This document shows, in pieces, positions 23,222-59,752 of a stretch of DNA of 64,000 nucleotides. Numbering within the stretch: the first letter of the stretch is position 1; each line of letters opens with the position of its first letter. This stretch comes from Phycisphaerales bacterium (GTDB lineage Bacteria; Planctomycetota; Phycisphaerae; Phycisphaerales; UBA1924): NCBI GenBank assembly GCA_038225655.1, contig JBBRQY010000003.1:265323-329322 (forward strand), in the 5' to 3' direction. The notes under the pieces were generated by a model. That model made no database searches. It saw only the letters and a list, made by a program, of their open reading frames with translations, and was not told the origin of the DNA. The position numbers were made by a program, and so were the translations under genes.

Positions 23222-24220
23222 TCACTCCCCTTCATTCATCCCCTGCGTCATCGCTCCACCGATCGACCTCCGCGTCATTTGCGGCAGCGACGCCGGCAAG
23301 CCACCCGGCCAGAGCGATCGCACCCCTTCCCGCACAATCCGCAGCCCCCCCATCATCGCCAGCCCCAGCGACGGCCGCGGCTTCAACGCATTCCGCCGCA
23401 CCAGCAGCGCGGTTACATCATCGTTGAATACATCCCGCAGATCGTCCGCGGCCACATCCCCGCGCAACGCCGCGATCCGTGACAACAGTTCGCGCACGAA
23501 CGTCTCCGGCCGCGACGGGTCCCCCTCCGCGAGCACGCGCCGCAGCCCCTCGTGCCCCAGCAGCCGTCCATCCGCATCCGTCGCCTCGATCAGCGAATCC
23601 GTGTAGAACAACACCAGATCATCCGGCCGCAGATGCACGCTCGTCGCCGGATACATGGTCTCCTCGATAATCCCCAGCGGCAGATTCGTCGGCCCCGTAC
23701 CACCCTCCCCCGGCACGATCATCCCCCACTCTCCCCTCTTGGCATCAAAACGCATCGGCCGCGGATGCCCCGCGTTCGAGACCGCCAGTTCATCCGTCGG
23801 CGAGAAATACGTCGCCACCACCGCTGTGGCAAACAGCACCCCTGCGCCCGCGTTTTCCAGGCCCTCCTCCCCGATCACTCCAAACTCCCGGTTCACGCGC
23901 GCCACCAGATCGGCCTGATCGATCGAGTTCGTGTGCTTCCGCATGAGCCGCCGCAACGCATCGGCCGCCTTCGCCACCGGCGCGCCATGCCCCGAAACAT
24001 CCGCCACGATCAGCCGCGTGATCCGCCCCGTGGCGCAGTTCGTCACGTAATGGATGTCCCCCCCCGCTTCCCCCGAATCGTCCCCCGCCCGATACGGCAG
24101 CGAATACACCCAGGCATCCAGCCCCGGCATCACGACACCATTGTCAATGGCGCGATTGCCGCCCCATACCTCCATACAGGCCATGACGTGCTGCCCCGCC
24201 TCATTGCCTTGATGCCTCAT
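23222..24220 (-). CDS. PP2C/SpoIIE-family serine phosphatase
   Basis: 'GGDIHYV...LIVADVSGHGAPVAKAA...', 'LVLFYTDSLIEA' are typical SpoIIE/RsbU-type motifs. Confidence 0.8.
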   Translation of the reverse strand: MRHQGNEAGQHVMACMEVWGGNRAIDNGVVMPGLDAWVYSLPYRAGDDSGEAGGDIHYVTNCATGRITRLIVADVSGHGAPVAKAADALRRLMRKHTNSIDQADLVARVNREFGVIGEEGLENAGAGVLFATAVVATYFSPTDELAVSNAGHPRPMRFDAKRGEWGMIVPGEGGTGPTNLPLGIIEETMYPATSVHLRPDDLVLFYTDSLIEATDADGRLLGHEGLRRVLAEGDPSRPETFVRELLSRIAALRGDVAADDLRDVFNDDVTALLVRRNALKPRPSLGLAMMGGLRIVREGVRSLWPGGLPASLPQMTRRSIGGAMTQGMNEGE

Positions 24221-24236
24221 GCCTTGATGCCTTCCT

Positions 24237-24271
24237 CACATCCGACATACGACATCGCACATCCGACATTC
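24237..24271. repeat. degenerate heptamer array (SACATNN)x5, intergenic
   Basis: cacatcc gacatac gacatcg cacatcc gacattc. Near-copy of the array at 24631-24665. Confidence 0.8.
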
Positions 24272-24273
24272 CG

Positions 24274-25506
24274 CTACGCCAGCAGCACATCCAGCAACTC
24301 CGGCACCCCCTGCCCCCGCGTCGCCACAGTCTCGATCACCGGCCGCCGCCCCGCCACATCCCGCAGATCGCGCACCAACTCGTTCTCCCCCGGATGATCC
24401 GCCTTGTTGCAGACGAACACATCCGCGATCTCCAGAATCCCCGCCTTGTCCATCTGCACCGCATCGCCCATTCCCGGCGTCAGCACCACCGCCGTCCGAT
24501 CCACAAACGACCGAATCTTCGTCTCGTTCTGCCCCGCGCCAACGGTCTCAATAAACACAGTGTTGAACCCATGTGGGATGTGGGATGTGGGATGTGGGAC
24601 GTCCGCGCCAGATGTGCCTGACTTTGCCTTCACATCCGACATCCCACATCCGACATCCGACATTCCCCCTATCAGCTCCACAATCTCCGGCAGCGCGTGA
24701 TAATCCTCCCCGCTGATCGCGAGCGAGCGATAGAACACGCTCTGGTCCAGCGTGTTGAAGTCCACCCGCAGCCGATCCCCCAGCAGCGCGCCGCCTGTGA
24801 TCGGGCTCATGGGATCAAACGCCACAACGGCGCACCTTCCCATCTCGGGCTTCTCTTTCGCCCGCCGCGTGTACTCCCCCACCAACTGCGCCACCAGCGT
24901 GCTCTTGCCCGCCCCCGGCGATCCGGTAATTCCAATCACACGCGTCGGCCTCTTCCTCGCCGCACCATTCCGCATCGGCCGCCCCGCATGCATCAGCGAA
25001 ATGTCCCGCGCGAGCTGCGACTCGGCCGTCCCATTCTCCACCACCTGCCCGCGCGCCTTCGTCGCTCCGCGCACCGCCTCCACTATGTCAATCAGCCCCG
25101 TCGCCGTCGTGAAACACTTCGCCACGCCACCGGCGAGCAGCACCGCAATGTCCTCCTGCGGCAGAATCCCACCCATATACACCGGCATGTCCGGCCGACC
25201 CAACTCCCGCAGCGCCGTCACCAGCCGCGGCCCCAGCACCAAGTGCGAGTTGCTCATCATGCTCGCCGCGATCACATCGCAATCCTCATCCCGCGCCGAA
25301 ATCGCCAGCGACCGCGGCGTCTGCCACAGCCCCGAATAAATCACGTGCACCCCCGAATCCCGCAGAGCCCGCGCGATCACCTTTACACCCCGGTCATGCC
25401 CATCCAGCCCCATCTTCCCCAGCAACACCCGCGGCCGATGATCCAGATCCGCGCAGCGGTCCTTCTTCTCAAACTCGGTCGTCGCGGTGTGCAGTGTGGT
25501 GGTCAT
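24274..25506 (-). CDS. fusion of a methylmalonyl-CoA-mutase-type B12-binding domain with a MeaB/ArgK G-protein chaperone
   Basis: N-terminal: 'RVLLGKMGLDGHDRGVKVIARALRDSGVHVIYSG'. C-terminal: P-loop 'GITGSPGAGKSTLV', 'IETVGAGQ', 'NKAD'. Start placed at ATG 25506. Confidence 0.8.
   Translation of the reverse strand: MTTTLHTATTEFEKKDRCADLDHRPRVLLGKMGLDGHDRGVKVIARALRDSGVHVIYSGLWQTPRSLAISARDEDCDVIAASMMSNSHLVLGPRLVTALRELGRPDMPVYMGGILPQEDIAVLLAGGVAKCFTTATGLIDIVEAVRGATKARGQVVENGTAESQLARDISLMHAGRPMRNGAARKRPTRVIGITGSPGAGKSTLVAQLVGEYTRRAKEKPEMGRCAVVAFDPMSPITGGALLGDRLRVDFNTLDQSVFYRSLAISGEDYHALPEIVELIGGMSDVGCGMSDVKAKSGTSGADVPHPTSHIPHGFNTVFIETVGAGQNETKIRSFVDRTAVVLTPGMGDAVQMDKAGILEIADVFVCNKADHPGENELVRDLRDVAGRRPVIETVATRGQGVPELLDVLLA
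24571..24665. repeat. inverted heptamer-repeat element inside the MeaB coding region
   Basis: (ATGTGGG)x4 at 24571-24598, a 32-nt spacer, then (SACATCC)x5 at 24631-24665. Read in-frame as 'MSDVGCGMSDVKAKSGTSGADVPHPTSHIPH'. Confidence 0.85.
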
Positions 25507-25600
25507 GGGGTTCGTGCGGAGGGTATGCGCGCACCGGGGTGGCACGGGCGGCTTGCCCGCCCGTGGTGTGGCAGCCGAACCCCCGGCGAGTCAGGCCTGC

Positions 25601-26551
25601 TCACCGTACCCGAAACTCCCACTCCACCCCCGGCGTGTACCCGATCGCCTTGTACAACTGCTCTCGGGTCTGCATCTCCCCGAGCGACCCCTGAACGCTC
25701 CCGTCTTTCTTGAGCGTCTCCAGCGCTCGCCCCACCGCCCCCATCGCAACCCGCAGCATGCTCACTGGGTAGATCACGCACTGATACCCCATCGCCCCGA
25801 ACTTCGCCGCCGGAATCAGCGGCGTCTTCCCGAACTCCGTCATGTTGGCGAGCAGATAGAACCGCCGCGACGCTCCCGCCGACTGCCGAAGGTCCGACGC
25901 AAACCGCCCGAACTCCTCTTCGGTCGTCAGCCCCTCCGGAAAGATCATGTCCGCCCCAACTTCCAAATACGCCCTCGCCCGCGCCACCGCCGCATCAAAC
26001 CCCTCCACCCCCCGCGCATCCGTCCTTGCACAAATGATGAACCCCCGGGCATCCTCGGTCTTCCCACATCCCACATCCCACATCCCACATCCCACATCTC
26101 TTGCCGCATTCACCGCCGCTCGCACCTTCTCCACCGCATGCTCCAGCGGCACCAGTTTCTTCCCATCCAGATGCCCGCACCGCTTGGGAAACACCTGATC
26201 CTCGATGTGCAGCCCCGCCGCCCCCGCCCGGGCATACTCGATCACCGTCCGTCGCACCATCTCGCTCTCGCCGAACCCGGTATCCGCATCCGCGATGATC
26301 GGCAGCCCGCTCGCGTCGAACGCCTCCCGGATGCAGCGGCAGAAGTGCTCAAGCGTCAGGATTCCCACATCCGGCACCCCCGCCGCCACACTGGTAACCG
26401 CGCCCGACACATACGTCGCATTGAACCCGGCATCCGCGATCATCTTCGCGCACAGCGCATTGAACGCCCCCGGCATCATCACCGTTTTTTCGGGTCCGGG
26501 GGGGTTGTCCAGCAAGGCGCGAAGGCGGGCACCGGGAGTTGCGTTCGGCAT
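25601..26551 (-). CDS. isocitrate lyase/PEP mutase superfamily enzyme, methylisocitrate-lyase-like
   Basis: 'MMPGAFNALCAKMIADAGFNATYVSG', 'ADADTGFG', 'IEDQVFPKRCGHLDGK', 'ICARTDA'. Start trimmed to ATG 26551. Confidence 0.8.
   Translation of the reverse strand: MPNATPGARLRALLDNPPGPEKTVMMPGAFNALCAKMIADAGFNATYVSGAVTSVAAGVPDVGILTLEHFCRCIREAFDASGLPIIADADTGFGESEMVRRTVIEYARAGAAGLHIEDQVFPKRCGHLDGKKLVPLEHAVEKVRAAVNAARDVGCGMWDVGCGKTEDARGFIICARTDARGVEGFDAAVARARAYLEVGADMIFPEGLTTEEEFGRFASDLRQSAGASRRFYLLANMTEFGKTPLIPAAKFGAMGYQCVIYPVSMLRVAMGAVGRALETLKKDGSVQGSLGEMQTREQLYKAIGYTPGVEWEFRVR
26063..26097. repeat. perfect heptanucleotide tandem repeat (CCCACAT)x5 inside a coding region
   Basis: Read directly from the sequence. 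On the coding (minus) strand it is (ATGTGGG)x5, encoding 'DVGCGMWDVGCG'. Confidence 0.95.
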
Positions 26552-26753
26552 AGTCCATGGTACCAACCCCCATGCCCCGACCAATTCCGGCCCATCCAGA
26601 CACCCCCCGAATTCCGCCCGCATCCCCCCTCCCCGCCCCTCTGCACTCCATCCACGCCTTTGTTATGCTGGGCCCGCCCCGACCCAGTGGGCCGGTCGAT
26701 CCGTCCCGTGACCGTCGCTCGTTGCGCACCCCACCCTCTCAGGAGATCCCTTC

Positions 26754-27161
26754 ATGCACGCACTCCCGACGCTTCTCGCCCAGTCCTCCAACGCCGGCTC
26801 CGTCGGCGGAGCGATCGGCGGTCTCTTGTTCTGCGGCATCTACCTCCTCGTCACCGTCCTCGTCGTCGCGGGCTTCTGGAAAACCTTCGAGAAGGCCGGT
26901 CAGCCGGGATGGGCCGCAATCGTTCCGTTCTACAACCTCTGGGTCTTGTGCCAGGTCGCCGGACGTCCGGGCTGGTGGTTCATTCTGTTCTTCATTCCCA
27001 TCGTCGGCCTCGTCATCAGCATCATGGTCAGTCTGGACATGGCCAAGGCCTTCGGCAAGGGCGTCGGCTTTGCCATCGGCCTCATCTTGCTTGGGCCGAT
27101 CTTCTACTGCATTCTCGGCTTTGGCAGCGCGCAGTATCAGGGACCCGCCGCCGCGCGCTGA
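26754..27161 (+). CDS. small multi-pass membrane protein (DUF5684-like)
   Basis: 'FEKAGQPGWAAIVPFYNLWVLCQVAGRPGWWFILFFIPIVG' matches my recollection of the DUF5684 family signature. Confidence 0.65.
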   Translation: MHALPTLLAQSSNAGSVGGAIGGLLFCGIYLLVTVLVVAGFWKTFEKAGQPGWAAIVPFYNLWVLCQVAGRPGWWFILFFIPIVGLVISIMVSLDMAKAFGKGVGFAIGLILLGPIFYCILGFGSAQYQGPAAAR

Positions 27162-27194: not shown

Positions 27195-27884
27195 ATGCCG
27201 AGTCCGACACCGCTCCCCGATCCGCAATGGACCGAGGGACCGTTGGAATGCGTGGGGTGCGGCTATTCCCTCGACGGCCTCGCCATCCCCGGCCGCTGCC
27301 CCGAATGCGGCGCACCGTTCGATTCGCAGGTGATGGTGCTCCACGGCGTCGCCCGCTCCTCCTCGGGCACATCGCTCTGGCGCAGACTCGCGTGGATCGG
27401 GCTCGCCGTCGGCGCCATGATTGTCACCCAGGCGTGGCCCTTCCTGCTCATGTTCTCCTGGATGGTGCTCGTCGCCGCGCTCGTCGCGGTCCTCGCAGGC
27501 ATCATTTTCATGGTCGCCACCGGCCGGCGCGAACGCGCCGGCACCGAACGGTTCATGTTCACCAGCGCTGGCGTCGCACGCCTCCCCGCCAAGCGCGACG
27601 ACCGCGGCCCCGGCATGGACGCCGTCTTCATCCCCTATTCACCAACCGCCCGCTTGCGCGTCGATCCCATCAGCCCATTCTGGCGACGCGTCCGCATTGA
27701 GACCCCCGACACGCACGGCGTTCATCAGGTCGTCTTCGACGCGGGCTTCCGTTGCCCCTCACAACACGCCGACCGCGTCGAAGCGACCATCCGCGCGGCT
27801 ATGCAAGGCACTGCAATGCCCACCGATCACCCTACCGCGCCCCCCCTCCACCCGCCCGTCACGCCTCCTCCGCTCCCCCGCTGA
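27195..27884 (+). CDS. membrane protein with N-terminal zinc ribbon (C-x2-C-G-Y-x-L-x-G-L...C-P-E-C-G)
   Basis: 'CVGCGYSLDGLAIPGRCPECGAPF', followed by two TM helices. Confidence 0.6.
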   Translation: MPSPTPLPDPQWTEGPLECVGCGYSLDGLAIPGRCPECGAPFDSQVMVLHGVARSSSGTSLWRRLAWIGLAVGAMIVTQAWPFLLMFSWMVLVAALVAVLAGIIFMVATGRRERAGTERFMFTSAGVARLPAKRDDRGPGMDAVFIPYSPTARLRVDPISPFWRRVRIETPDTHGVHQVVFDAGFRCPSQHADRVEATIRAAMQGTAMPTDHPTAPPLHPPVTPPPLPR

Positions 27885-29114
27885 TCACCCATTCCACTTC
27901 CGCTCGGGCTCGCCCGTGTAGATACTCAGCGGCCGAATGATCCGGTTATCCGCGTGCTGCTCGATGATGTGGGCGCACCAGCCGGTGATGCGGGCGGCGA
28001 CGAAAATCGGCGTGTACTGCGGCACCGGAATCCCCATCACGAAGTACGTCATCCCGCACGGGAAATCCACGTTCGGGTGGATGTTCTTCTTCACGAGCAT
28101 GATCTTCTGCACCTGCTCGCCCAGCTCAAACCACTTCGGCGCAGGAATCCCGCCGAACGGCCCCTTGAGCGTCCCCGCCATCTTTTTCCCTAAACCGTGC
28201 AGAATCCCCGCGCGGTGATCCCCGTTCTTGTACACGCGATGCCCAAAGCCCATCAGTTTCCGCTTCGTGTCGAACGCCTTCTGCATCCAGTCGTCCACCG
28301 CCGGCGTTCCGATCCCCTTCTCTCCTACATCCTTCACGATCTCCTTCAGCATCTCCATCGCCATCTCGTTCGCCCCGCCATGCAGCGGCCCCTTGAGGGC
28401 AGCGATGCCGCCCGCCACCGCGCCGTGCATATCGCTGAACGTCCCTGCAATCACCCGCGTCGTGAACGTGCTCGCATTAAACTCATGCTCGGCGTACAGA
28501 ATCAGGGACACATCGATCACCTTCGCCTCATCCTGCGAAGGCCGCCGCCCAGTCATCATGTACAGCATGTTCGCCGCGTGGCCAAGCGTCGGATCGCCCC
28601 CCTCGCGCCGCCCGATGATGGCCCGCCCGTCGATGATGTTCTGCATGTGCCCGATCATTGTGGGAATCTTCGCTAGCAGCCGCTTGGCCTTGCGGAGGTT
28701 GGCATCCTTCGTCACCAACTGCGCATCCGGATCGGTGTGGGCAAGCAGACTCACAGCGCTCCGCAGCACGTCCATCGGCACCGCCCGTCCAGACGCAAGC
28801 CACCCAGCCGACGACTCAATGAACGACGTTACAAACGGATGGAGTGCCCGCTCCGCGATGATCTCCGCTTTGAACCGCGCCAACTCCTGCGCACTGGGCT
28901 TGTGCCCCTCGAGCAGCAAAAACGCAACCTCCTCAAACGTCGCGTGCTCCGCCAGATCATGGATCTCATACCCCCGATAGATCAGCTTGTCCTGCTCGAT
29001 CGAGCACACCGCCGTCTGCCCCCCGATCACCCCTTCCAATCCCTTCGCAAACGCGGCCTGTTTGTCGGACTTGGCAGTGGCAGCAGCATTCGCGGGAGCA
29101 GCAGCGGTCGACAT
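27885..29114 (-). CDS. citrate synthase / 2-methylcitrate synthase family
   Basis: 409 aa. 'GLEGVIGGQTAVCSIE...LIYRGYEIHDLA', 'GFGHRVYKNGDHRA'. The nearby methylisocitrate-lyase-like gene makes a PrpC role possible. Confidence 0.9.
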   Translation of the reverse strand: MSTAAAPANAAATAKSDKQAAFAKGLEGVIGGQTAVCSIEQDKLIYRGYEIHDLAEHATFEEVAFLLLEGHKPSAQELARFKAEIIAERALHPFVTSFIESSAGWLASGRAVPMDVLRSAVSLLAHTDPDAQLVTKDANLRKAKRLLAKIPTMIGHMQNIIDGRAIIGRREGGDPTLGHAANMLYMMTGRRPSQDEAKVIDVSLILYAEHEFNASTFTTRVIAGTFSDMHGAVAGGIAALKGPLHGGANEMAMEMLKEIVKDVGEKGIGTPAVDDWMQKAFDTKRKLMGFGHRVYKNGDHRAGILHGLGKKMAGTLKGPFGGIPAPKWFELGEQVQKIMLVKKNIHPNVDFPCGMTYFVMGIPVPQYTPIFVAARITGWCAHIIEQHADNRIIRPLSIYTGEPERKWNG

Positions 29115-33713: not shown

Positions 33714-33785
33714 GCGGGCGTAGCTCAATGGTAGAGCATCAGTTTTCCAAACTGAATGTTGCGCGTTCGAGTCGCGTCGCCCGCT
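33714..33785 (+). tRNA. trnW: tRNA-Trp (anticodon CCA)
   Basis: GCGGGCG...CGCCCGC acceptor stem, 'TAGCTCAATGGTAGAGC' D-arm, anticodon loop TTCCAAA, 'GTTCGAGTC' T-arm. No encoded CCA. Confidence 0.9.
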
Positions 33786-33787
33786 TT
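33744..33787 (+). repeat. attL (44-bp direct repeat, 3' part of tRNA-Trp)
   Basis: tttccaaactgaatgttgcgcgttcgagtcgcgtcgcccgcttt, identical to 49926-49969. Confidence 0.9.
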
Positions 33788-33894
33788 GGATAAGTTGCCG
33801 GATCGCAAGGATTTGCGAGGCCTCCCGAGTGTTCGGGAGTGCGGCCAAACCAGCGTCCGCCGTGGTTCATACCACGGCGTGCAGGAGCCGCACT

Positions 33895-35178
33895 ATGTCC
33901 GCGCCCACAACTCCATCGCCCCGCCTCCCTCAGATGCTCGTGTACGCCCCCGCCGGCCGCGTCACGAAAGACGGCCAACCCTACCGCCGATTCCGTGTAC
34001 GCGTGAAGGGGCAAGACATTCCTCTGGGTCCGTGGGGTCCGGACGACTCGCCCGAGCATCAGCGAGCCACGATGAAGTACCGCGGCATCTGCGCCGACCT
34101 TCTGCGCCACGGGAAGGTATGCAGCAAGCCGGATGTGCTCACCGTCGGATCGCTCATCGACTTGTACCTCAACGAACTCGCGAGGCGGGACGCGGCGATT
34201 GATCCGCCTGGACGCAGCGAACCGAACGGCCGATCGATTCTCAAGAAACTTCGTGCTGGTTTCGCGCCGGAACGAGCCGCGGACTTTTCCGTGCCCAAAC
34301 TTGTGCATTGGCGCCTCGCCCTCGCCGAGACGGTCGATGATCGCGGAGTCCGGCTCAGCCGCGGCTATCTCAACAGCAAGGTGATCCCGACAATCGTGCG
34401 CATGTTCCGGTGGGCTCAGGACAAAGGACTCATCGAAGGCGAGCGATGGAAGGGCAATCCGAAGGACGTGGTTACGCCGCTCGCGAAGGGCGAGACTTCA
34501 GCGCCGAACCTCGAAGCAAGGGAGATGGCGGAGGGGATTGTCGTCGATCAGGTGCTTCCGCACCTACTCCCCTATGTCCGCGACGTGGTACAACTCATCC
34601 GTTTGACCGGGGCTCGCCCATCGGAAATCTGCCGACTCACCTGTGCGATGATCGACACTTCGCGGGCCGACGTGTGGGTCGTGGATTTGAAGCAGAACAA
34701 GAACGCCCACAGAGGGAAGATGCGAGTGATCACGTTCGACGCATCGGCGCAGGAGATTCTTTGCCGCCACAGGGATCCCCACCGCCCCTATGCCTGCATC
34801 TTCACGGGCGGACGACTCAAAGAGGCCAGCGTTCGAGCGAAACACGCCGGCCGGAACAGCACGCCGACGCCGGCACAGCTTGCGGCGATGGCGAAGGCCA
34901 CTGAGGATCGACTTGCCGACGCCAAACCGCTCGACCCGTCCACCGTTCAGGACCACGTGCGCCTTGCGTGCGTGGAGCACGGAATCGCACCGTGGACGCT
35001 GTACCAGCTCCGACATGCGGCCATCACCGAGGCGGACGACTTGGTAGACGAAGGCGTAGCGCAGGACGTTGCCGGGCATTCCTCCGCGGCGATGACCAAA
35101 AAGTACAAGCACAATCAGATCAACCGGGCCGTGAAGGCACGCCGCGCCGTCACCGCTGCGAAGGCCGCGGCTCACTGA
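33895..35178 (+). CDS. int: tyrosine-type site-specific integrase
   Basis: 'GARPSEICRL', 'LYQLRHAAIT', 'GHSSAAMTKKYKH' (R...H-x-x-R...H...Y). Start placed at ATG 33895. Confidence 0.9.
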   Translation: MSAPTTPSPRLPQMLVYAPAGRVTKDGQPYRRFRVRVKGQDIPLGPWGPDDSPEHQRATMKYRGICADLLRHGKVCSKPDVLTVGSLIDLYLNELARRDAAIDPPGRSEPNGRSILKKLRAGFAPERAADFSVPKLVHWRLALAETVDDRGVRLSRGYLNSKVIPTIVRMFRWAQDKGLIEGERWKGNPKDVVTPLAKGETSAPNLEAREMAEGIVVDQVLPHLLPYVRDVVQLIRLTGARPSEICRLTCAMIDTSRADVWVVDLKQNKNAHRGKMRVITFDASAQEILCRHRDPHRPYACIFTGGRLKEASVRAKHAGRNSTPTPAQLAAMAKATEDRLADAKPLDPSTVQDHVRLACVEHGIAPWTLYQLRHAAITEADDLVDEGVAQDVAGHSSAAMTKKYKHNQINRAVKARRAVTAAKAAAH

Positions 35179-35333
35179 GACGCATTGCAAACCACAACTC
35201 TACACAATATAACATTGCGATTGGCCATCATGGACACTCAAGGACAGTCATTGACAATCACGGCCGAAAATGATGTGTTTTGGTGTGACTTGGTTGGGTT
35301 CGGTGTCGCGGATTGTCGCCATTTGACCCCATC

Positions 35334-35362
35334 TTGACTTATGTCTGGCATAGGGGCACAAT
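35334..35362 (+). promoter_or_regulatory. sigma-70-like promoter candidate TTGACT-17-CACAAT
   Basis: TTGACT at 35334-35339 and CACAAT at 35357-35362, within a visibly AT-richer intergenic stretch. Confidence 0.3.
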
Positions 35363-35402
35363 GGGACGTACTGGCGTCACCCAAAACACAAAGGAACCCA
35401 TT

Positions 35403-35714
35403 ATGCCGCTATCGCCAGCGTCCAAGCCCCCCGCAATCACACTCGAAACCCTCCGCGAAACGCGGCTCACGTTCAAGGCTGCCGCGAAACTCGCGGGCGT
35501 GGATCAGACATCCGTTTGGCGATGGGCCATGACCGGCCTCCGCGGCGTCAAGCTGCCGACCATCCACATCGGCAGGGGGCACTTCGTCACCGAGCCTGCC
35601 CTTCTCGACTTCCTCAACAAGATCAACGACAAGGGGCCCGCCGACGTGTCCCACCTTGTCGAAGCCCGTCAAGAAGCCCGTAAGCCCCGCCGATCGCGAC
35701 GCCGCGCGGCCTGA
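35403..35714 (+). CDS. small HTH DNA-binding protein (DUF1580-like)
   Basis: 'LTFKAAAKLAGVDQTSVWRWAMTGLRGVKLPTIHIGRGHFVTEPALLDFL'. Confidence 0.6.
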   Translation: MPLSPASKPPAITLETLRETRLTFKAAAKLAGVDQTSVWRWAMTGLRGVKLPTIHIGRGHFVTEPALLDFLNKINDKGPADVSHLVEARQEARKPRRSRRRAA

Positions 35715-35738
35715 TTCAGTTCGATCCCGATTTGATCT

Positions 35739-36188
35739 GTGAATGCTCGGGCTGCCGCATCACCAACGGCCCGGGCAGAAGTTGTCCCTCACATGAAACC
35801 TATCCGGTCGGACAAGGAACGTCCAGCCCCGGCCACGAATCCCTTGGCCCAGTGGCTCCGCGCCCAGGCCGCGGCGTTCGTCGCGCAGGCGGAAGCGATC
35901 GAGCGAGGCCATCAGAGCGAGACGATCACATGCCCCGGGCTGGATCGGATGGACGTGGCGATTCTTCGCGTGCTCGCCGCGCACCCTTTGCATCGTGTTC
36001 TCGCTGCCGATCTATCCGACGGTGGGCATCGCGACATCGGCCGTCCAAAGGCCGTGGGCATCCGCCTCCGTCAACTCCACAACAGCGGCTTTGTCGATTT
36101 CCCCGTCGGTAGCCATCGCGGCGCCCTCATCACCGGCCGGGGACTTGCTGCCGTGCGTGCAGATGACGTGCAAGTGACGCTCAAATGA
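35739..36188 (+). CDS. hypothetical winged-helix-like protein
   Basis: 'MDVAILRVLAAHPLHRVLAADL...GIRLRQLHNSGFVDF' is MarR/wHTH-like. The start may instead be at 35793 (MKPIRSD). Confidence 0.5.
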   Translation: MNARAAASPTARAEVVPHMKPIRSDKERPAPATNPLAQWLRAQAAAFVAQAEAIERGHQSETITCPGLDRMDVAILRVLAAHPLHRVLAADLSDGGHRDIGRPKAVGIRLRQLHNSGFVDFPVGSHRGALITGRGLAAVRADDVQVTLK

Positions 36189-36224
36189 CCGCTTCGCCAA
36201 AACCGCCCGGAGGATACTTCCCAC

Positions 36225-36776
36225 ATGTCCGAGCCACAACGACTTTTCAACGTCCGGCAACTCTCCCGACATCTCAGCGTGTCTCAAAAGTGGCTGCGAC
36301 TAGAGGTGGAGGAGAATCGACTCCCCTGCATTCGCATCCGCAAGAATGAAATGCTGTTCGACGCCGAGACAGTCGAAACGATTCTGGCTGAGCGAGCAAA
36401 GCTCGGCGATGGCCGTGTCGTCACGAACTACTTCACGCCAGCGGTTCCGGCGAGGCACGTTGGAGGCGTGCATCGGAAGGCGATTCAGCTCTTCGGGGAT
36501 CTGCTGGCTGTGACTTGGGATTGCAACCACCCCGCGCGAGCCGAGTCGGTGCGTGCCCTGCTCTCCGAAATCGGGATCGATGTGAACGTCACGATGTCTG
36601 GCGAGCTTTCCCAAAAGACGCTTGAATGGCTCGTTGCTCAGTGCCCCGCGTGGCCGGTCGATGCCCAATGGGCACCACCGTCGAGAACTCCGCGCCCCAC
36701 GCAGGAAGCGATAGACGCGGCCGCTCCCCTCAACGGAAAGGACTCCGATGCCCCGTCGTCCCCAATCGCATATTGA
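36225..36776 (+). CDS. HTH (excisionase/MerR-like) domain protein
   Basis: 'LFNVRQLSRHLSVSQKWLRLEVEENRLPCIRIRKNEMLFDAETVETIL'. Confidence 0.6.
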   Translation: MSEPQRLFNVRQLSRHLSVSQKWLRLEVEENRLPCIRIRKNEMLFDAETVETILAERAKLGDGRVVTNYFTPAVPARHVGGVHRKAIQLFGDLLAVTWDCNHPARAESVRALLSEIGIDVNVTMSGELSQKTLEWLVAQCPAWPVDAQWAPPSRTPRPTQEAIDAAAPLNGKDSDAPSSPIAY

Positions 36777-36999
36777 CCACCACGCCGCGGCCCGATGGCT
36801 GTGCGGCGGACCCGTGCGTGATATGCCGCTCGCGCAGCGGCTCATTCGTCACTTCGTGGCGACCGGCCACTGGCGCGAAGTCAGCCGGGATGGCGTCGTT
36901 GGCTTCGACCTCGCGGACCTGAATGCGTGGCTCGTGTGGTGGCACTCGCCATCGTCGGACCTGGCACAGCCGCCGTTCGCGTCTCGGAGGGCGGCATGA
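36748..36999 (+). CDS. hypothetical small protein
   Basis: ORF track 83 aa. Its TGA overlaps the next gene's ATG (ATGA at 36996-36999). Start uncertain. Confidence 0.4.
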   Translation: MPRRPQSHIDHHAAARWLCGGPVRDMPLAQRLIRHFVATGHWREVSRDGVVGFDLADLNAWLVWWHSPSSDLAQPPFASRRAA

Positions 37000-37916
37000 A
37001 GATCAACATTGCACTGATCCGGACCGATGGCCAGACGCAGCCGCGCGAGCGGTTGGATACGAATGTGGTCAGCGACTACGCCGAGATGCTCGACGCGCTC
37101 CCGCCGGTGACGGTCTTTCGCGAAGGGAACAATTACTGGCTGGCCGACGGCTTCCATCGACACGCCGCGCACGTCAAGGCAAAACTCGAACAGATAAGTG
37201 CCGACGTTCGGAACGGCACTGTTGACGATGCCCGTCTGTTCGCCGCTGGAGCCAATGCCGCCCACGGGCTTCGTCGAACGATCGCGGACAAGCGGCGCGC
37301 CGTGCGGATCGTCCTATGGCACCCGTTGGCCGAAGACTGGTCTGACCGCCAAATTGCGACTCACTGCGGGGTGTCTCACACGTTCGTTGCGCGGTCGCGG
37401 CTTGATCTCAATGGCGCAGTTGTGGCCCGCTCCGACACAAAGCCGAACCCGGAACCCGCGACCCTTCCCACCGATGCCGTGGCCGATCCGAGCTCGGGCC
37501 CGCCGGAGCGTCCAACCGCAAAGACCGAGTTGCCGAAAGGCCTGGACCCCGATGTAGCGATGAAGCTGCTTGCTGCGATCGCGCAGTCGGACGTGCTGCG
37601 ACGGCTCAAACTTGATCTGGACGCGATCGCGCGCCGAGTCGAACAGTGCAGAGAGAACACGGCAGCTCGCCAGTTTCCATTTCAGCAATTTGTGAGACCC
37701 TTCCGCGAGGTGACGCTCTATGTCTGGAACGCGGAGCCGTTCTGCACATGTCCTGAGCCCCACGCGGGCCAACCCGGATGCCGCCTTTGTGCTTCCACGG
37801 GTTGGCTCACTCGCGGCGCGTTCCACAACTCCGCAATTCCGAAAGACCACAAGCAAGCGTGCTGGTTCTTCCGCGACGGCGATTGGTTGACCGCTGAGCA
37901 AGCGGGAGAGCTGTGA
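36996..37916 (+). CDS. ParB-like N-terminal (ParB/Srx nuclease-like) domain protein with C-terminal Cys cluster
   Basis: 'MKINIALIRTDGQTQPRE...VTVFREGNNYWLADGFHRHAAH' is ParB N-terminal domain-like. C-terminus 'CTCPEPHAGQPGCRLCASTGW'. Confidence 0.7.
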   Translation: MKINIALIRTDGQTQPRERLDTNVVSDYAEMLDALPPVTVFREGNNYWLADGFHRHAAHVKAKLEQISADVRNGTVDDARLFAAGANAAHGLRRTIADKRRAVRIVLWHPLAEDWSDRQIATHCGVSHTFVARSRLDLNGAVVARSDTKPNPEPATLPTDAVADPSSGPPERPTAKTELPKGLDPDVAMKLLAAIAQSDVLRRLKLDLDAIARRVEQCRENTAARQFPFQQFVRPFREVTLYVWNAEPFCTCPEPHAGQPGCRLCASTGWLTRGAFHNSAIPKDHKQACWFFRDGDWLTAEQAGEL

Positions 37917-38527
37917 CGGCCGCCAAGCTCAACACGTCATGGCCGACGAATCTCCCCGCGGACGCTCAGGCGCTCTGGGAGAGTATCGTCGGCCTCGTGC
38001 TCGAGCAGCCCCAGCCGGACGAACGCTGGCGGCTGGTGGTCCTTGGCCTGGCTCGTGGAGTGAAGTTCTCACACTTCACCCGCGACTTCACGCAGCCCCA
38101 ACTAGACACGCTCGCCCGGTTCGCCTTTGACACGATCGACTATCTTCGCCGCGGACACGAGCGCGACGAGACGGTGGCGGCATTTCGCACGGCCCACGAA
38201 CGGGCAAAATTCCCGCTGCCGGGTTTCTTTGCGACCATCGCGTTTTCGCAGGCACGAACGGCGCCACTTCCTTCCGCCGCGAAGCGATACGAGGATGATT
38301 CGCTCCGCATGCTCGTGGCCGGGTGCCACGAGCTGCAGCGCATGGCCGGGGATAGCCCGTTCGTCCTCACGTGCCGGGATGCCGGCCGAGAGATCGGACG
38401 TCACCACGAGACCGCGCATGACTATCTCAAGATGCTGGTCCGCGACGGCGTTCTGGAGAAGGTTTTTGCGGGCAAAGCCGGATCAGGCTGGGGCTGCGCG
38501 GCTAAGTTTCGATTCGTCACTGTCTAA
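37913..38527 (+). CDS. hypothetical protein with C-terminal wHTH-like segment
   Basis: ORF track 204 aa, GTGA overlap with the previous gene. 'HETAHDYLKMLVRDGVLEKV'. Confidence 0.5.
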   Translation: MTAAKLNTSWPTNLPADAQALWESIVGLVLEQPQPDERWRLVVLGLARGVKFSHFTRDFTQPQLDTLARFAFDTIDYLRRGHERDETVAAFRTAHERAKFPLPGFFATIAFSQARTAPLPSAAKRYEDDSLRMLVAGCHELQRMAGDSPFVLTCRDAGREIGRHHETAHDYLKMLVRDGVLEKVFAGKAGSGWGCAAKFRFVTV

Positions 38528-38578
38528 CCTTCGCACCCCGCTCCGGAACATGCAACACCCACAGCAGAGGTATAGACC

Positions 38579-38899
38579 ATGAACGAGGAACAGCAGGCCA
38601 AGGTGAACGTGTGGCTCGCCAAGATGCAGGAAGTCGGCGGCACTGAATACCAGACCTATCGGCAGGCGATGGACTCTCTGTATGCAGAGCTCGATGAGGT
38701 AGTGTTGAACGAGGTGGTCCGCCTCAACGATCTGCAACTGCAGAAGGCGATTTTGACATGGAGCGGCCCACTGAGAGCATCGCTTTGCTCAAGCGGATTC
38801 AACAGGACGGGGACCATGCTCGACGAGTGGCGAGAGGTCGCGGCAAGCCGCCTTCTTCAACCTGACCGGCGCCAGCTCGGCACGTATTCGGGTGCGTGA
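38579..38899 (+). CDS. hypothetical protein (3' half doubtful)
   Basis: ORF track 106 aa. The first ~60 aa look protein-like. The tail overlaps the convergent gene 38857-39267. Confidence 0.35.
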   Translation: MNEEQQAKVNVWLAKMQEVGGTEYQTYRQAMDSLYAELDEVVLNEVVRLNDLQLQKAILTWSGPLRASLCSSGFNRTGTMLDEWREVAASRLLQPDRRQLGTYSGA

Positions 38900-39267
38900 A
38901 TGACGTGCTGATCGATGTACTGAAGCACGCTGGGCAACAGGAATAGCTTGGTGCCTCGTCGCACTCGGAAGCCGCAAAGTCCGTCGGCGCGGAGCTTGGC
39001 GATCTCGGTGCTGATCTGCGATTCGGCGCACTCGACCCGAAGAAACTCCAGCACTTCGCGGCTCGTCATCACGAACGGAGCGGGCCGACCGGACGGCATC
39101 CAATAGGCCTCGCGGACAGTGACGCCTCCCACGGGAACCTGGACGGGTTTGGTGGCGTCGCCGATGCGCTCGGCAAGTCTGGCCGGCTCGTTGCGTCCGC
39201 CGCCGGATCTGCGTTGGTACGGCACCTGTGGCGTAAGCGGTGACGGCTGGGGCTTGTCGTTCATCAT
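38857..39267 (-). CDS. HTH (excisionase-like) DNA-binding protein
   Basis: 'MTSREVLEFLRVECAESQISTEIAKLRADGLCGFRVRRGTKLFLLPSVLQYI'. Start at MMNDK. Confidence 0.5.
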   Translation of the reverse strand: MMNDKPQPSPLTPQVPYQRRSGGGRNEPARLAERIGDATKPVQVPVGGVTVREAYWMPSGRPAPFVMTSREVLEFLRVECAESQISTEIAKLRADGLCGFRVRRGTKLFLLPSVLQYIDQHVIHAPEYVPSWRRSG

Positions 39268-39374
39268 CCCAATATACACGCGCGTGTGTGTAGGTTTGTG
39301 CTGGTTTGTAAACGTCTGTCAATGACACGCTTGCAGTCCGGTCGTTCGCAAATGAGTCGCCGTAGACTGACCAC

Positions 39375-39500
39375 ATGAACCCCGCGCGCTGGATGATCGC
39401 GTATCGCGCCGTCGTCGTGGCCCTGCTCGCCGCCATCGCCCTGGGCGTATTGATGCTCGTGGCCAAAGTCTGCCACGGAACCCTTGACGTTTGGCGGTAG
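39375..39500 (+). CDS. 41-aa single-pass hydrophobic peptide (not in ORF track)
   Basis: Manual translation: MNPARWMIAYRAVVVALLAAIALGVLMLVAKVCHGTLDVWR*. Third codon positions are strongly G/C, as in the real genes here. Confidence 0.4.
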   Translation: MNPARWMIAYRAVVVALLAAIALGVLMLVAKVCHGTLDVWR

Positions 39501-39521
39501 CGAGGCCGACGGCGGAGGGGT

Positions 39522-39740
39522 CTATTTCGATCGTCGCCGGGTCTTCTTGTGGCCGCGGCCGACCGTGATGCCGGCCGCGAGCGCCGAGACCTCGGAAACG
39601 TCTACCAAAGTGGCCTGAAGGTTTCGCACCATCACCGTCTGCGATCGCTTCAGCCGATCCGTCGCGAGCCACCGCGCCACCGTCGCCCGGTCGATGCCCA
39701 CCTTTGACGCCGCATCCCGCATGGTCATCATGTCGCCCAT
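39522..39740 (-). CDS. small HTH repressor/Cro-like protein
   Basis: 'MRDAASKVGIDRATVARWLATDRLKRS'. Transcribed divergently from the 39893 gene. Confidence 0.7.
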   Translation of the reverse strand: MGDMMTMRDAASKVGIDRATVARWLATDRLKRSQTVMVRNLQATLVDVSEVSALAAGITVGRGHKKTRRRSK

Positions 39741-39747
39741 ATGGGGG

Positions 39748-39817
39748 ATTGTAGCACGTGCGATATTTGACGCAACTTGTCAAATCAGATTGACAGATAC
39801 AGCACGTGCGGTATTCT
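39748..39817. promoter_or_regulatory. divergent promoter/operator (genetic-switch-like) region
   Basis: AGCACGTGCG occurs twice (39753-39762, 39801-39810). Leftward -10 TACAAT (complement of 39748-39753). Rightward TTGACA (39790-39795)-16 nt-TATTCT (39812-39817). Inverted TTGAC/GTCAA at 39768-39783. Confidence 0.45.
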
Positions 39818-39892
39818 TTCCGATAGCAAGGGACCGCCGCGAGTGACGTTACCACTCGGACGGCCCCGCGAAACTGCATCGAAAGGAACTCC

Positions 39893-40123
39893 ATGAACTC
39901 TACCACCCCCAACAGCAGCCCAGCCCGCGAAGCCACATACCTCGCCCTGTTCTGTGCCGCCCTGTCCGGTGCCACCATCGCCGCGGGCCCCGATGCACAT
40001 GCCATCGACGTGGCCACCCGAGCCACTGACCTCGCCGACCTCGCCATGAGCGCCATCGACAAGGCCGGGTGCCCCGGTGTCGAGAAGCCGCAACGCTCCA
40101 GCCGACTCCGAATCGCAGTGTAA
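39893..40123 (+). CDS. hypothetical small protein
   Basis: ORF track 76 aa. AAGGAA-type RBS a few nt upstream of the ATG. Confidence 0.45.
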   Translation: MNSTTPNSSPAREATYLALFCAALSGATIAAGPDAHAIDVATRATDLADLAMSAIDKAGCPGVEKPQRSSRLRIAV

Positions 40124-40223
40124 ACCGGTCCCAAAGCTACTCGAAACTCTTGGAAGACGACCGCCCCTGGCACATGCTGGGGGCGTTGTCGTTCCATGCC
40201 TAGTCTCAGGACAGGCCCATACC

Positions 40224-40307
40224 GACAGAGAGACAGAGACACAGAGAATTTACACGACCCTTCCGTGTATCTCTGTCGCCCAAATCGGTACAAGTCTCTG
40301 TCGCCCA
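40224..40307. repeat. iteron-like repeat cluster
   Basis: Three tandem 8-mers ACAGAGAG/ACAGAGAC/ACAGAGAA (40225-40248). Two copies of CTCTGTCGCCCA (40271-40282, 40296-40307) in the inverse orientation. Confidence 0.7.
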
Positions 40308-40745
40308 TTCCACCCGGCAACGTTGCCACTCCGGCCGGTCCGCCGGCGTCTACGTCGGTGCGCGTGCGCGCTTCTGAAACATTTTGGTCCCACCTCCCCA
40401 CGCCGTTCCCGCCCTCGCCGTGGCACGTTGCCACCCATCGAGAACGCCGCCGGACGCTGTACCACGCACCTACACCACGATGCCCCGCCCTCGCTCGGCG
40501 GGCTTGGACCGTGTTTCAAGGTGGTTTCAACACGCCTTCAACGGCGCACGCTCAGCCAGTTCAGATGACACTCCACCCAACGAGGGGCGAATCGAGTGCC
40601 GCCCGCAGGCCGATGGGGTGGCACGGGGGAGCTGGGCGCGTAGAGATGGGTCGATCGACTCGCGCAGAACTCTGAGAAAAAATCTTCCAAGGGTCCAAAA
40701 CTTCTGAGCCGATACATAGATGGCGGTATATATTTACCGCGATCA

Positions 40746-41405
40746 ATGCAGTCGTCACGGCTGATGCCCGAGGGCAACCCGCGAACGAGTGCGAGGACCG
40801 ACCACGTGCACCACTTGCTTTCTGCTGACCAGCATCGCTTCTTGAGCCGCAACCGCTTGGTGATGCGGCATCGCTCTGTTGCCCCGACCGACGTGAGTGT
40901 CGATGTCCTGGGAAACATGAGCCACTCGCCGGCGCTCATCGAGCTCGACATCATCGACGATCACGATGCAGTGCTGGTCTGCGAGCGCGGCGACAGCGAA
41001 CCCGAGTTGATCGCGAAGCTCTTTTCTGAGGCCAATCGCGTTTTGCCGGTGTTCGCGGAGAGTCGCGCGAACGACCGTGAAGCTGCGATGGCGAAGCAGG
41101 CGAAGGAACATCGCCTGTGGCAGATACTCAACAACATCGTCGATCTTCGGCCGAACGAATCTTGGCCGCCAAACTGGGTCTCCACGCTCGACGATTTCTC
41201 CCGGCCGGGCGGCTTCCCCAACACTGTGGGGTGTCTGGCGCACAAAGAGATTCTTGCCGCCGTCGCGGTGCTTCGGCATTGGGTGTCTCTCCACCGACAG
41301 CTCGTCAATGCTGCTTCGGTCGAGCACGCCGACGTGCCGGCAGAGATCGTCAAGATCGAGGCATCGCTCCCCTGGCTCTTTAGTCTCGCGCGGGAGGCCC
41401 CATGA
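40746..41405 (+). CDS. hypothetical protein (start uncertain, possibly about 40917)
   Basis: ORF track 219 aa. The C-terminal two thirds look protein-like. No motif recognised. Confidence 0.45.
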   Translation: MQSSRLMPEGNPRTSARTDHVHHLLSADQHRFLSRNRLVMRHRSVAPTDVSVDVLGNMSHSPALIELDIIDDHDAVLVCERGDSEPELIAKLFSEANRVLPVFAESRANDREAAMAKQAKEHRLWQILNNIVDLRPNESWPPNWVSTLDDFSRPGGFPNTVGCLAHKEILAAVAVLRHWVSLHRQLVNAASVEHADVPAEIVKIEASLPWLFSLAREAP

Positions 41406-41427
41406 CTCATATTGGAGCTAAAGCATC

Positions 41428-41799
41428 ATGAGCGACACAGCCACCGCAAAAGTACCAGAAGGTTCGATTCCCGACGAACTCGCCACGCGGTCCGCCCTGC
41501 GGATCGTCGGCGGCCAGGACCAACTCGACGCCCTCAAACGCGACGCGGCGACGTTCATCCCGCCCGCTGAACTCGCCCAATACAACGAGTGGTTGAAAAA
41601 TCCGAACACGCGGGCCGACACCGTGAAGTTGCTGATGCAGGAGCGTGACAATCACGCCCGCGTCAAGGCCGTTGAAGCACCCACGAACGTCCGCGACTAC
41701 AAGACGCTCGAACGCCGCGCCATGAACGGCGACGCCAAGGCCCAGCAACTCATCGCCAACCTCGACGTGTCCACCATCACCGTCCACCCAAGCCGCTGA
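41428..41799 (+). CDS. hypothetical protein
   Basis: ORF track 123 aa, with a GGAG-like RBS upstream (attggagc). Confidence 0.55.
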   Translation: MSDTATAKVPEGSIPDELATRSALRIVGGQDQLDALKRDAATFIPPAELAQYNEWLKNPNTRADTVKLLMQERDNHARVKAVEAPTNVRDYKTLERRAMNGDAKAQQLIANLDVSTITVHPSR

Positions 41800-41808
41800 G
41801 AACCCCCC

Positions 41809-42384
41809 ATGTCCGTCGTTCGCTCCATCGTCGCAGATGCTCAACATCAAGCCCGTGTCGCACTTCTTGTCCGCACACGCGAGATCATCGCGTGCCTTTG
41901 TCGCGTGGCCCGCCTGAGTGCGGACCAGAAACCGGCTGCACAAGACGCCACGATGCTCGGCGAACTTATGCGGCCGGGCGCGTTGCCCGAGGATCTGCAA
42001 TATGTTCACGTGCAGGGAGCCCCCAATCCGAGCAAGCAGCGGAACTGCTGGACCGCCGAAGAACTGGAGGCGATCGTTGATCAGTTGTCGAACTGCGTGG
42101 GCAAACTCAATGACTTGGAGGCCGCCGAAGCGAAGCTGAAAGCCGGCGGCGACCTTGCCGCCGCCGATGCCGCGTACCGGGCCGTCGGCGATCGCAACCG
42201 TCCACTCATCAAGAAACTTAAGGACGAGATCAAGAAGCTGGAGGAGGAAATCAGTGTCGCCGGAGAAGACGGCAGCTATATCAGGAGACTTCAGGAAGAC
42301 GTGGAGAAGGTGAAGAAACTTCCGCGGCAGTCGTTGGAGCTGAACGCCCAGTATTTCGCCGAAGCGTTGGGAGTGCCGGAGTAG
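41809..42384 (+). CDS. hypothetical coiled-coil protein
   Basis: ORF track 191 aa. 'LKDEIKKLEEEISVAGEDGSYIRRLQEDVEKVKKL'. Confidence 0.55.
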   Translation: MSVVRSIVADAQHQARVALLVRTREIIACLCRVARLSADQKPAAQDATMLGELMRPGALPEDLQYVHVQGAPNPSKQRNCWTAEELEAIVDQLSNCVGKLNDLEAAEAKLKAGGDLAAADAAYRAVGDRNRPLIKKLKDEIKKLEEEISVAGEDGSYIRRLQEDVEKVKKLPRQSLELNAQYFAEALGVPE

Positions 42385-42397
42385 GAACCGATTGCGA

Positions 42398-42814
42398 ATG
42401 ACCGAAGCACCGCCACAGACCAGTTCCCAGGTGCCGCCAGCGCCAGCCCGCAAGGTGTCCGTGCCGCTCGGTCAGCGAGAACTACTGCGAGCGAGTGAAG
42501 TGATGGCGATTTTCGGGTGGAAGCGTTCGAAGTTCTACGAGCACCTTCGCGAGTACAGGATTCCGCAGCCCGTCGAAGTGGGAGAAACGAAATTCTGGCG
42601 AAGACGCGAGCTTGCGGATTGGGTGGACGCAGGAGCACCGAACGTCGGCATGCGGGGTGACCATTGGAAGTGGGAGCCGGGCGTTCGGATGAAGCTCTCG
42701 ATCGTGCATGCGCAAATGGCCAGGCAACTCTCCGAGATGCGCACCGAGTGGAACCTGTTGGATGAACTGCTGAAAAAGGGCGATCGGATCATCAACCTAC
42801 GGAGCACCCAATGA
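42398..42814 (+). CDS. AlpA/excisionase-like HTH protein
   Basis: 'LLRASEVMAIFGWKRSKFYEHLREYRIPQPVEVGETKFWRRRELADWV'. Confidence 0.6.
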   Translation: MTEAPPQTSSQVPPAPARKVSVPLGQRELLRASEVMAIFGWKRSKFYEHLREYRIPQPVEVGETKFWRRRELADWVDAGAPNVGMRGDHWKWEPGVRMKLSIVHAQMARQLSEMRTEWNLLDELLKKGDRIINLRSTQ

Positions 42815-43056
42815 ACACCTACACCCCCGACCATCTCGTCCTCATCGCCGCGGCCGATCGCCGTCGCGTCCGGTGCTCGCCCGATCGTTTCCGTGACATG
42901 CTCTCCATCATCCACACGCCGCGCAGGATCGGATTCGGAGACACACTCAGGCGCGTTAACGGCACTGCGCGGTATGTCTTCACGCCGCTCACGATCGCCA
43001 TCGCCCTCGCCTTCACTCACCACGCGCCGCGGCGTCGGAATTCTCAACATGTCTGA
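42811..43056 (+). CDS. hypothetical small protein
   Basis: ORF track 81 aa. ATGA overlap upstream, and an 8-nt overlap with the next gene. Confidence 0.4.
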   Translation: MNTYTPDHLVLIAAADRRRVRCSPDRFRDMLSIIHTPRRIGFGDTLRRVNGTARYVFTPLTIAIALAFTHHAPRRRNSQHV

Positions 43057-45301: not shown

Positions 45302-45307
45302 CCGCCC

Positions 45308-49765: not shown

Positions 49766-49925
49766 CGGCGTTCATCGCTGGTTCCGCACGTCTTGCCTCG
49801 TGGTATTCGTACCACAAGCCAACGCAATCACGTGAGATTTGCCTCGTTTTTGCACAGACTTGCACCAAGTGGCGATTAGTGCTATTCTTGCTGTGAATCC
49901 GCTGTTTTTGGCATCGGCACCCGTC

Positions 49926-49969
49926 TTTCCAAACTGAATGTTGCGCGTTCGAGTCGCGTCGCCCGCTTT
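49926..49969 (+). repeat. attR (44-bp direct repeat, tRNA-Trp 3' fragment)
   Basis: Identical to 33744-33787. Confidence 0.9.
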
Positions 49970-59692: not shown

Positions 59693-59752
59693 CTGCCATG
59701 TGCCATCTCTTACCTCCCCCCTACCCTTCCCTTCCCCTCAGGAGTTTCCCCC

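Follow-up and report, generated by a model that had tools for sequence, protein, structure and literature searches.

An in-frame heptanucleotide array in a PrpB-like gene of a Phycisphaerae bacterium, probably a recent copy of a known class of G-rich heptamer repeats

Heptamer repeats and comparable elements in bacteria

Where heptamer repeats in bacteria come from, and what they do, has been an open question since 1990 (STRR). Heptanucleotide repeats also occur at the hmw loci of Haemophilus influenzae, which are phase-variable contingency loci.

Among the described systems, the closest is the class of G-rich heptamers reported by Rehm et al. (2015), represented by GGGAATC in Xanthomonas and by GGGGAYT in Nostoc, with hundreds of dispersed copies (PMC4692102). 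These heptamers preferentially form arrays of four units, fold into G-quadruplexes (G4s) in vitro and are found either singly or as convergent inverted pairs; they lie near stop codons on the sense strand, are under-represented in ORFs and change length rapidly between relatives, and no functional role was found for them (PMC4692102). They belong to the "long SSRs", among which an excess of heptamers was reported by Mrazek et al. (2007); Rehm et al. cite this excess as well as the idea of polymerase slippage (PMC4692102). Polymerase slippage with a 7-nt preference is a published hypothesis for the generation of such arrays. A second class, the TAACTGA heptamers of Beggiatoaceae, Cyanobacteria and Bacteroidetes, was described by MacGregor (2015) and occurs in ORFs only at gene ends (PMC4679880), a confinement that results from its stop codons in all forward frames. 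Finally, in-frame insertion into genes is described for the Rickettsia palindromic elements (RPEs), which are conserved and about 150 bp long (PMC10969869).

The locus described here is a perfect array of the heptamer ATGTGGG within a PrpB-like (2-methylisocitrate-lyase-like) gene of a metagenome-assembled genome from the Phycisphaerae (Planctomycetota), with 63.8% G+C; it lies in a 64-kb window, by which we mean the whole stretch of DNA that was analysed. Like the Xanthomonas and Nostoc heptamers, it belongs to a family with a G3-bearing 7-nt unit, dispersed single or inverted arrays, four-unit arms, positions next to stop codons, fast gain and loss and no tie to gene function. It departs from them in its unit (ATGTGGG/ATGTCGG), in its planctomycetal host (Phycisphaerae) and in the fact that the copies in the PrpB-like gene and in a MeaB-type gene are translated in frame, mid-domain, in conserved enzymes. 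With the cyanobacterial STRR sequences and TAACTGA it shares tandem heptamers, a scattered phylogeny, mostly intergenic positions and occasional copies in ORFs; unlike TAACTGA, ATGTGGG is stop-free in six frames and can sit in the middle of a domain. The likeness to RPEs and intragenic MITEs lies in hairpin-forming repeats inserted in frame in unrelated metabolic genes at structurally tolerant positions, but RPEs encode a conserved peptide, whereas only the 7-nt unit is common to the copies described here, their spacers are unique and most of them are one-armed. A literature search found no description of heptamer repeats in Planctomycetes, and the presence of the class in Phycisphaerae goes beyond the literature found.

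The array in the PrpB-like gene and its host enzyme

The features of the host locus are as follows.

25601–26623, minus strand: host gene, PEP-mutase/2-methylisocitrate-lyase type (PrpB-like), from Pfam, PDB and orthologues
26063–26097, minus strand: perfect heptamer array, (ATGTGGG)x5 on the coding minus strand, equal to (CCCACAT)x5 on the plus strand
26057–26098, minus strand: extra stretch of 42 nt (14 codons) relative to the congener L117, from DNA alignment; it consists of the array and about 7 flanking nt, and its borders are ambiguous

The ORF at 25601–26623 matches the Pfam family PEP_mutase (PF13714) at 8.5e-42 and, among PDB entries, 4iqd (2e-64) and E. coli PrpB, 1mum (2.4e-53); judging from orthologue N-termini, translation probably begins at the ATG at 26554. 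About 1.3 kb away, beyond a DUF5684 ORF (26754–27161, plus strand) and an unassigned ORF (27195–27884, plus strand), lies a citrate-synthase (PrpC-like) gene at 27885–29114, and the synteny around the PrpB-like gene is seen in the related genomes L117, L118 and L119. The match to the PEP-mutase/ICL superfamily, the KRCGH loop and the nearby citrate-synthase gene together point to a PrpB-type enzyme. KRCGH is invariant and all of the motifs KRCGH, ARTDA, DTGFG and EDQ are intact in this protein, so that it is probably a working enzyme. A look-up of the exact protein sequence returned no record.

The initial annotation had described a perfect (CCCACAT)x5 at 26063–26097, in frame in a methylisocitrate-lyase-like gene and just before the conserved ICARTDA strand; the repeat is exact in sequence, and the Pfam and PDB matches agree with the gene assignment. 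The coding strand across the array reads GGGATGTGGG... and is translated as RDVGCGMWDVGCGK, which directly precedes GFIICARTDA; the residues encoded by 26063–26097 are D176–G187, DVGCGMWDVGCG. The period-7 run without mismatch extends from 26062 to 26098, that is, over 5.3 copies head-to-tail. Such repetition is far above expectation for this DNA: the two-unit pattern, with at most one mismatch, has 10 matches in the 64-kb window against 0.09 expected, a count matched by none of 100 dinucleotide shuffles of the window, and there are three perfect period-7 arrays with 2.5 copies or more, where dinucleotide shuffles lead one to expect 0.16. An Rfam scan at the array locus gave no RNA family, its sole match in the window being a tRNA.

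A much shorter linker had been expected at this position in PrpB/ICL homologues, and the alignments agree. The linker is 14 residues longer than in the nearest orthologues (78–86% identity), all of which are without the insert; HMMER alignment to solved homologues opens a gap of 14–16 residues exactly at the array; and the spacing from KRCGH to ARTD is 47 residues here, compared with a mode of 31 found in 65 of 79 metagenome homologues. In an AlphaFold2 model of the protein (mean pLDDT 77.7), residues 179–192 have a pLDDT below 50, and this stretch sits between a helix (160–178) and a strand (196–202). The insert is thus predicted to be a disordered loop that connects helix 4 to strand 5 of the TIM barrel. 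In (beta/alpha)8 barrels, the loops that lead from a helix to the next strand are found opposite the catalytic face, so that the insert would lie on the side of the barrel away from the active site.

The seven-nucleotide unit has a direct consequence for the reading frame. The unit can be read in all six frames without meeting a stop codon, and when copy number was varied in silico a full-length PrpB-like protein was obtained only at n = 2, 5 or 8, all other copy numbers leading to truncation at residues 197–230; the frameshift predicted initially for the gain or loss of one unit is therefore confirmed in silico. This raises the question as to whether the gene could be a contingency locus, in which slippage of the heptamer turns methylisocitrate lyase production on or off in a form of programmed phase variation. 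Loops of 7 nt exceed the size handled by bacterial mismatch repair, the unit of 7 nt is not divisible by 3, the five copies are perfect and each step of one or two units in either direction truncates the protein, so that slippage would change expression as it does in hmw-type loci. The array, however, differs from those loci in the class of its gene, in its place within that gene, in its low number of copies and in its lack of conservation among relatives: it sits at codon 176 of 340, in the middle of a housekeeping gene of metabolism, and not in or before the 5' portion of a gene for surface, restriction-modification or virulence functions, and the tract is not retained in the nearest congener, L117, in L118 or in other orthologues. 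The same family also occurs in unrelated enzymes and mostly between genes, and in the study of the analogous repeats phase variation was considered unlikely on these same grounds (PMC4692102). A protein scan of the JGI metagenome collection for alleles with other copy numbers found no same-species contig, the best match having 68% identity. Programmed switching is quite improbable, and the phase-variation or regulatory site proposed in the initial annotation is left without support from its context, being mid-gene, absent in L117 and part of a dispersed, mostly intergenic family. The array would instead constitute a built-in frameshift hotspot of the PrpB-like gene, as a by-product and not a designed switch.

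The one independent assembly found, the same-strain Logan contig SRR19962015_205691, is 100% identical over 7,704 nt. It ends inside the PrpB array after four copies and so gives no copy count; the 28 nt at its end are common to the PrpB and MeaB arrays. Repeats do break assemblies, as they have done here, and one may ask whether the array is itself an assembly artefact of the metagenome-assembled genome. That an array is nonetheless present in this independent assembly of run SRR19962015, that the frame is kept through arrays in two separate genes, that similar structures occur in many unrelated assemblies and that the 35-nt array is shorter than the read length make an artefact scarcely credible.

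Further arrays in the window and across genomes

The family ATGTSGG (S = G or C) has five loci in the 64-kb window, and a hairpin of a related heptamer is present as well.

24274–25545, minus strand: fusion of a B12-binding domain and a MeaB GTPase, the second host gene, from Pfam and alignment to L117
24568–24666, minus strand: heptamer hairpin in frame in the MeaB-fusion gene, with arms of 32 nt that are 88% complementary
24235–24272, minus strand: degenerate ATGTCGG-type array that starts 2 nt past the MeaB stop codon
55987–56011, minus strand: (ATGTGGG)x2.3, overlapping the mutL stop codon (ORF 56006–58036)
59626–59708, no strand assigned: hairpin of a related heptamer (CACATGG x2 ... ATGTGCC-like x4) in the divergent nadC-fabI spacer, -40.9 kcal/mol

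The initial count of three further loci is right, if slightly understated: 24569–24603, 24630–24666 and 55987–56011 are joined by the degenerate array at 24235–24272. The first two are the arms of the MeaB hairpin, 24569–24603 (x4) having the opposite orientation to the PrpB array and 24630–24666 consisting of ACATCCG/ACATCCC x4.6. Read on the sense strand, the hairpin runs ATGTCGG, ATGTCGG, ATGTGGG, ATGTCGG, followed by a 29-nt spacer and (CCCACAT)x4; it adds a net 78 nt (26 codons) relative to L117, encodes the peptide GMSDVGCGMSDVKAKSGTSGADVPHPTSHIPHG and has a computed RNA fold energy of -55.9 kcal/mol. The MeaB fusion itself probably starts at 25506. The degenerate array occupies the spacer before a SpoIIE-phosphatase gene, and this spacer is 22 nt longer than in L117.

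L117 is a syntenic congener with about 85% nucleotide identity and a MeaB protein that is about 95% identical. It is without the PrpB array, the MeaB hairpin and the array 3' of MeaB, and these three arrays are therefore recent gains, which fall within 2.4 kb; the PrpB array is also absent from L118 and from other orthologues at 78–86% identity. At the PrpB site, alignment yields no clean ancestral sequence. The empty MeaB site in L117 reads CGGATGTGCC, and the unexpanded orthologue L225 reads CGGGACGTCGG (R-D-V-G) at the position of the PrpB array; going by these sequences, pre-existing near-matches to the unit may nucleate arrays.

The PrpB loop has been expanded more than once. Among the best 120 homologues, the length of the helix-4/strand-5 loop lies anywhere between 30 and 68 residues. 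In one orthologue (P0049, 67% identical; DNA L224) the same codon carries (ATGTSGG)x4, 27 nt and (ACATCCC)x4, as verified in the DNA; the peptides of P0053 and P0108 suggest the same heptamer family at this loop, and further homologues, for example P0004, have different palindromic or heptamer inserts there. The loop of the PrpB-like enzyme thus repeatedly acquires heptamer-type inserts across the Phycisphaerae, an observation that goes beyond the literature found.

The family is not restricted to this lineage. Exact (ATGTGGG)x3 occurs in at least 116 stretches of species-representative genomes, compared with about 0.3 expected by chance. The matches listed come from Phycisphaerae, other Planctomycetota, Bacteroidota, Gemmatimonadota and Chloroflexota, and also from Lentisphaerota, Chlorobiaceae, Clostridia, Streptomyces, Zymobacter and one archaeon; among them, several genomes hold three or four such loci each. 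The arrays are mosaics of one-mismatch variants, and unrelated heptamer arrays often adjoin them. In 782 kb of (ATGTGGG)x3 loci there are 191 perfect period-7 arrays built from 46 different units and at most 19 arrays for any other period from 4 to 11, while 259 kb of loci not selected for repeats contain three period-7 arrays. In viral contigs, the composition-matched controls AGTTGGG and AGTGTGG gave 8 and 10 matches, against 3 for ATGTGGG. Since the controls are at least as common and so many units are used, the phenomenon is specific to the period and not to the ATGTGGG sequence. On the same grounds, the idea that ATGTGGG itself is special, which would point to horizontal transfer or a sequence-specific enzyme, was rejected; horizontal transfer is not needed to account for the heptamer arrays.

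The majority of arrays are situated immediately before start codons or past stop codons. When coding arrays were called by GC3 and Pfam checks, 5 of the 122 arrays among the matches listed (about 4%) were verified as in frame inside Pfam domains: in an aldehyde dehydrogenase (L001), in NadE (NAD synthase; L015, of the hairpin type), in HypF (L090), in a CobB/CobQ-type GATase (L064) and in a Nuo51/RnfC-like protein (L078). The repeat peptide (DVGCGMW)n, compared with 5.8 billion proteins, matched only domain-less ORFs of 27–70 aa; these are miscalled intergenic arrays, and long arrays are confined to such spurious short ORFs.

These coding copies are also informative as to a possible functional G4, in mRNA or DNA, that would tune translation or transcription of the PrpB-like enzyme. 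The G4-type pattern noted initially on the coding strand is indeed satisfied, with five G3 tracts separated by 4-nt loops (G3N4 x5; G4Hunter 1.43), and the G4 is the predicted minimum-energy local fold of the mRNA when G-quadruplex energies are included in ViennaRNA (-21.5 versus -14.2 kcal/mol); oligonucleotides of the analogous heptamers fold into G4s in vitro (PMC4692102). The window, however, contains 25 canonical motifs on the minus strand and 167 G4Hunter regions with an absolute score of at least 1.5, which makes a G4 motif unexceptional here. The sense strand is moreover the C-rich strand in all five of the Pfam-domain arrays, so that the potential to form a G4 in the mRNA is not shared by such copies. 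Taken together with the lack of conservation of the array in the closest relative, L117, and with the absence of any regulatory role in the dedicated study of the class (PMC4692102), this makes a regulatory G4 very improbable.

The arrays also obey a rule of polarity. Within 150 nt of an array, a CCCACAT-type arm is found downstream in nine cases and upstream in none (122 arrays, among the matches listed), and with the two coding hairpins (MeaB and L224) included the order G-arm then C-arm prevails by 11 to 0; this rule holds across phyla and goes beyond the literature found. Hairpins of this kind could be taken for mobile palindromes of the MITE, RPE or REPIN type, which would enter genes in frame by transposition. 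The hairpins of 4+4 units in frame in the MeaB gene of the window and in the PrpB gene of the distant orthologue L224, the three recent gains in 2.4 kb and the recurrence of arrays in the same protein loop in several lineages would all be accounted for in this way, and the RPEs are a precedent for in-frame palindromic insertion into metabolic genes (PMC10969869). What argues against transposition is the structure of the copies. The spacers between the arms share no sequence among copies (the MeaB and L224 hairpins and those in L015, L023, L101 and L108), neither terminal inverted repeats other than the units themselves nor a target-site duplication can be clearly made out (the TCTT on either side of the PrpB array is weak and has no counterpart at the MeaB site), and 113 of the 122 arrays among the matches listed are single-armed. 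The 46 different units likewise fit growth in situ better than copy-and-paste, and a mobile element is thus unlikely.

Origin of the array and its significance

The family of the window displays tandem 7-nt units, dispersed loci, inverted pairs and a mostly intergenic placement, all of which characterize the G-rich heptameric SSR class, the PrpB copy being an exception to the last. Heptamer arrays arise and change length in 7-nt steps, and they exist singly or as hairpins of a G-arm, a spacer and a C-arm. The reading that we favour, with a probability of roughly 70%, is that the PrpB array is a recent in-frame copy of this known class, tolerated in a disordered loop. The array would have arisen recently inside the gene; its probable point of nucleation is the native R-D-V-G sequence (codons CGG GAY GTS GG), which already resembles 1.4 repeat units. 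Its survival under selection may be owed to a unit that is stop-free in six frames, to a net length (42 nt) that is a multiple of 3 and to a loop between helix 4 and strand 5 that lies off the catalytic face and would tolerate extra disordered residues.

Some observations weigh against this reading. Simple slippage from two to five copies must pass through frameshifted intermediates; the strict arm polarity (11 versus 0) and the four-unit arms are unaccounted for by simple slippage; and two of the five loci in the window are coding, compared with about 4% in the cross-phylum sample, although the numbers are small. A tentative and rather improbable proposal is that an active, directed process, and not passive slippage, makes the arrays from GGATGTS seeds, at about four units per step and with inverted arms in a fixed polarity; candidates for it, put forward just as tentatively, would be the extension of 3' ends along a template or synthesis by fold-back, at breaks or stalled forks.

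For annotation, the implication is that odd peptides of the DVGCGMW or PTSHIPH type in conserved enzymes of Phycisphaerae and of other phyla are translated heptamer repeats, and not domains, sequencing errors or inteins; the same arrays break short-read assemblies. As a single locus, the PrpB array is an ordinary member of a known repeat class and does not count as a proven genetic switch. Any mechanism of array formation is usefully constrained by the occurrence of both filled and empty sites among close relatives, by a loop that has gained such inserts independently many times and by the strict polarity of the arms. If the directed process were true, repeats would be generated, and protein loops would evolve, by a new mechanism that repeatedly remodels tolerant loops in Phycisphaerae, and the helix-4/strand-5 loop of PrpB would be its natural reporter.

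Strand composition and a putative element at tRNA-Gly

GC skew on the plus strand is negative and unusually strong (-0.15 to -0.33 across most of positions 1-64000). Over the same 64,000 nt, the minus strand carries 25 canonical G3N1-7 quadruplex motifs and the plus strand 3. The skew is far weaker within positions 33714-49969 than outside them; this segment is likely an integrated element of ~16 kb, with the following components:

33714-33785, tRNA-Gly(TCC)
33829-35178, tyrosine integrase ORF (Pfam Phage_integrase, 6.5e-13)
42893-45301, large ORF, 802 aa
45308-49765, large ORF, 1485 aa

The 3' half of the tRNA gene (44 nt, 33744-33787) recurs as an exact direct repeat at 49926-49969. Neither of the two large ORFs has a Pfam match.

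Repeats at the SpoIIE-phosphatase and mutL genes

Next to the degenerate, ATGTCGG-type heptamer array (24235-24272) that follows the MeaB stop codon lies a second short tandem repeat:

24198-24233, unit of 8/15 nt (GCCTCATTGCCTTGAT / TGCCTTGA)

This repeat directly adjoins the degenerate array and is located at the start of the SpoIIE-phosphatase ORF; it is also found in L117, the syntenic congener. Another copy of the heptamer array (55987-56011) extends over the stop codon of mutL, a mismatch-repair gene (ORF 56006-58036) with the Pfam domains DNA_mis_repair and MutL_C, and this overlap is probably coincidental.

Heptamer arrays and contig breaks in other genomes

Many assemblies have contigs that end within long heptamer arrays (contig ends in the genome stretches L016, L029, L071, L072, L116, and L223), and the heptamer repeats are therefore a systematic cause of contig breaks; the true lengths of the arrays are likely underestimated in MAGs. 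In the Zymobacter sp. chromosome NZ_CP179930.1 (L080:5971-6236), ATGTGGG arrays of 14 and 23 units are separated by one variant unit, giving 38 in total; an array of another heptamer, (GGCTTGT)n, comes before them, and the locus has a G+C content of 29%. In a Promineifilaceae MAG (L094:4157-7642), two consecutive arrays of different heptamers, one of them (CCCACAT)x5, connect two CydD/CydC-like ABC-transporter halves, both of which are thereby placed in a single stop-free frame. This joint frame may represent a gene fusion made by the repeats, or the arrays may be an untranslated spacer that is stop-free by chance.
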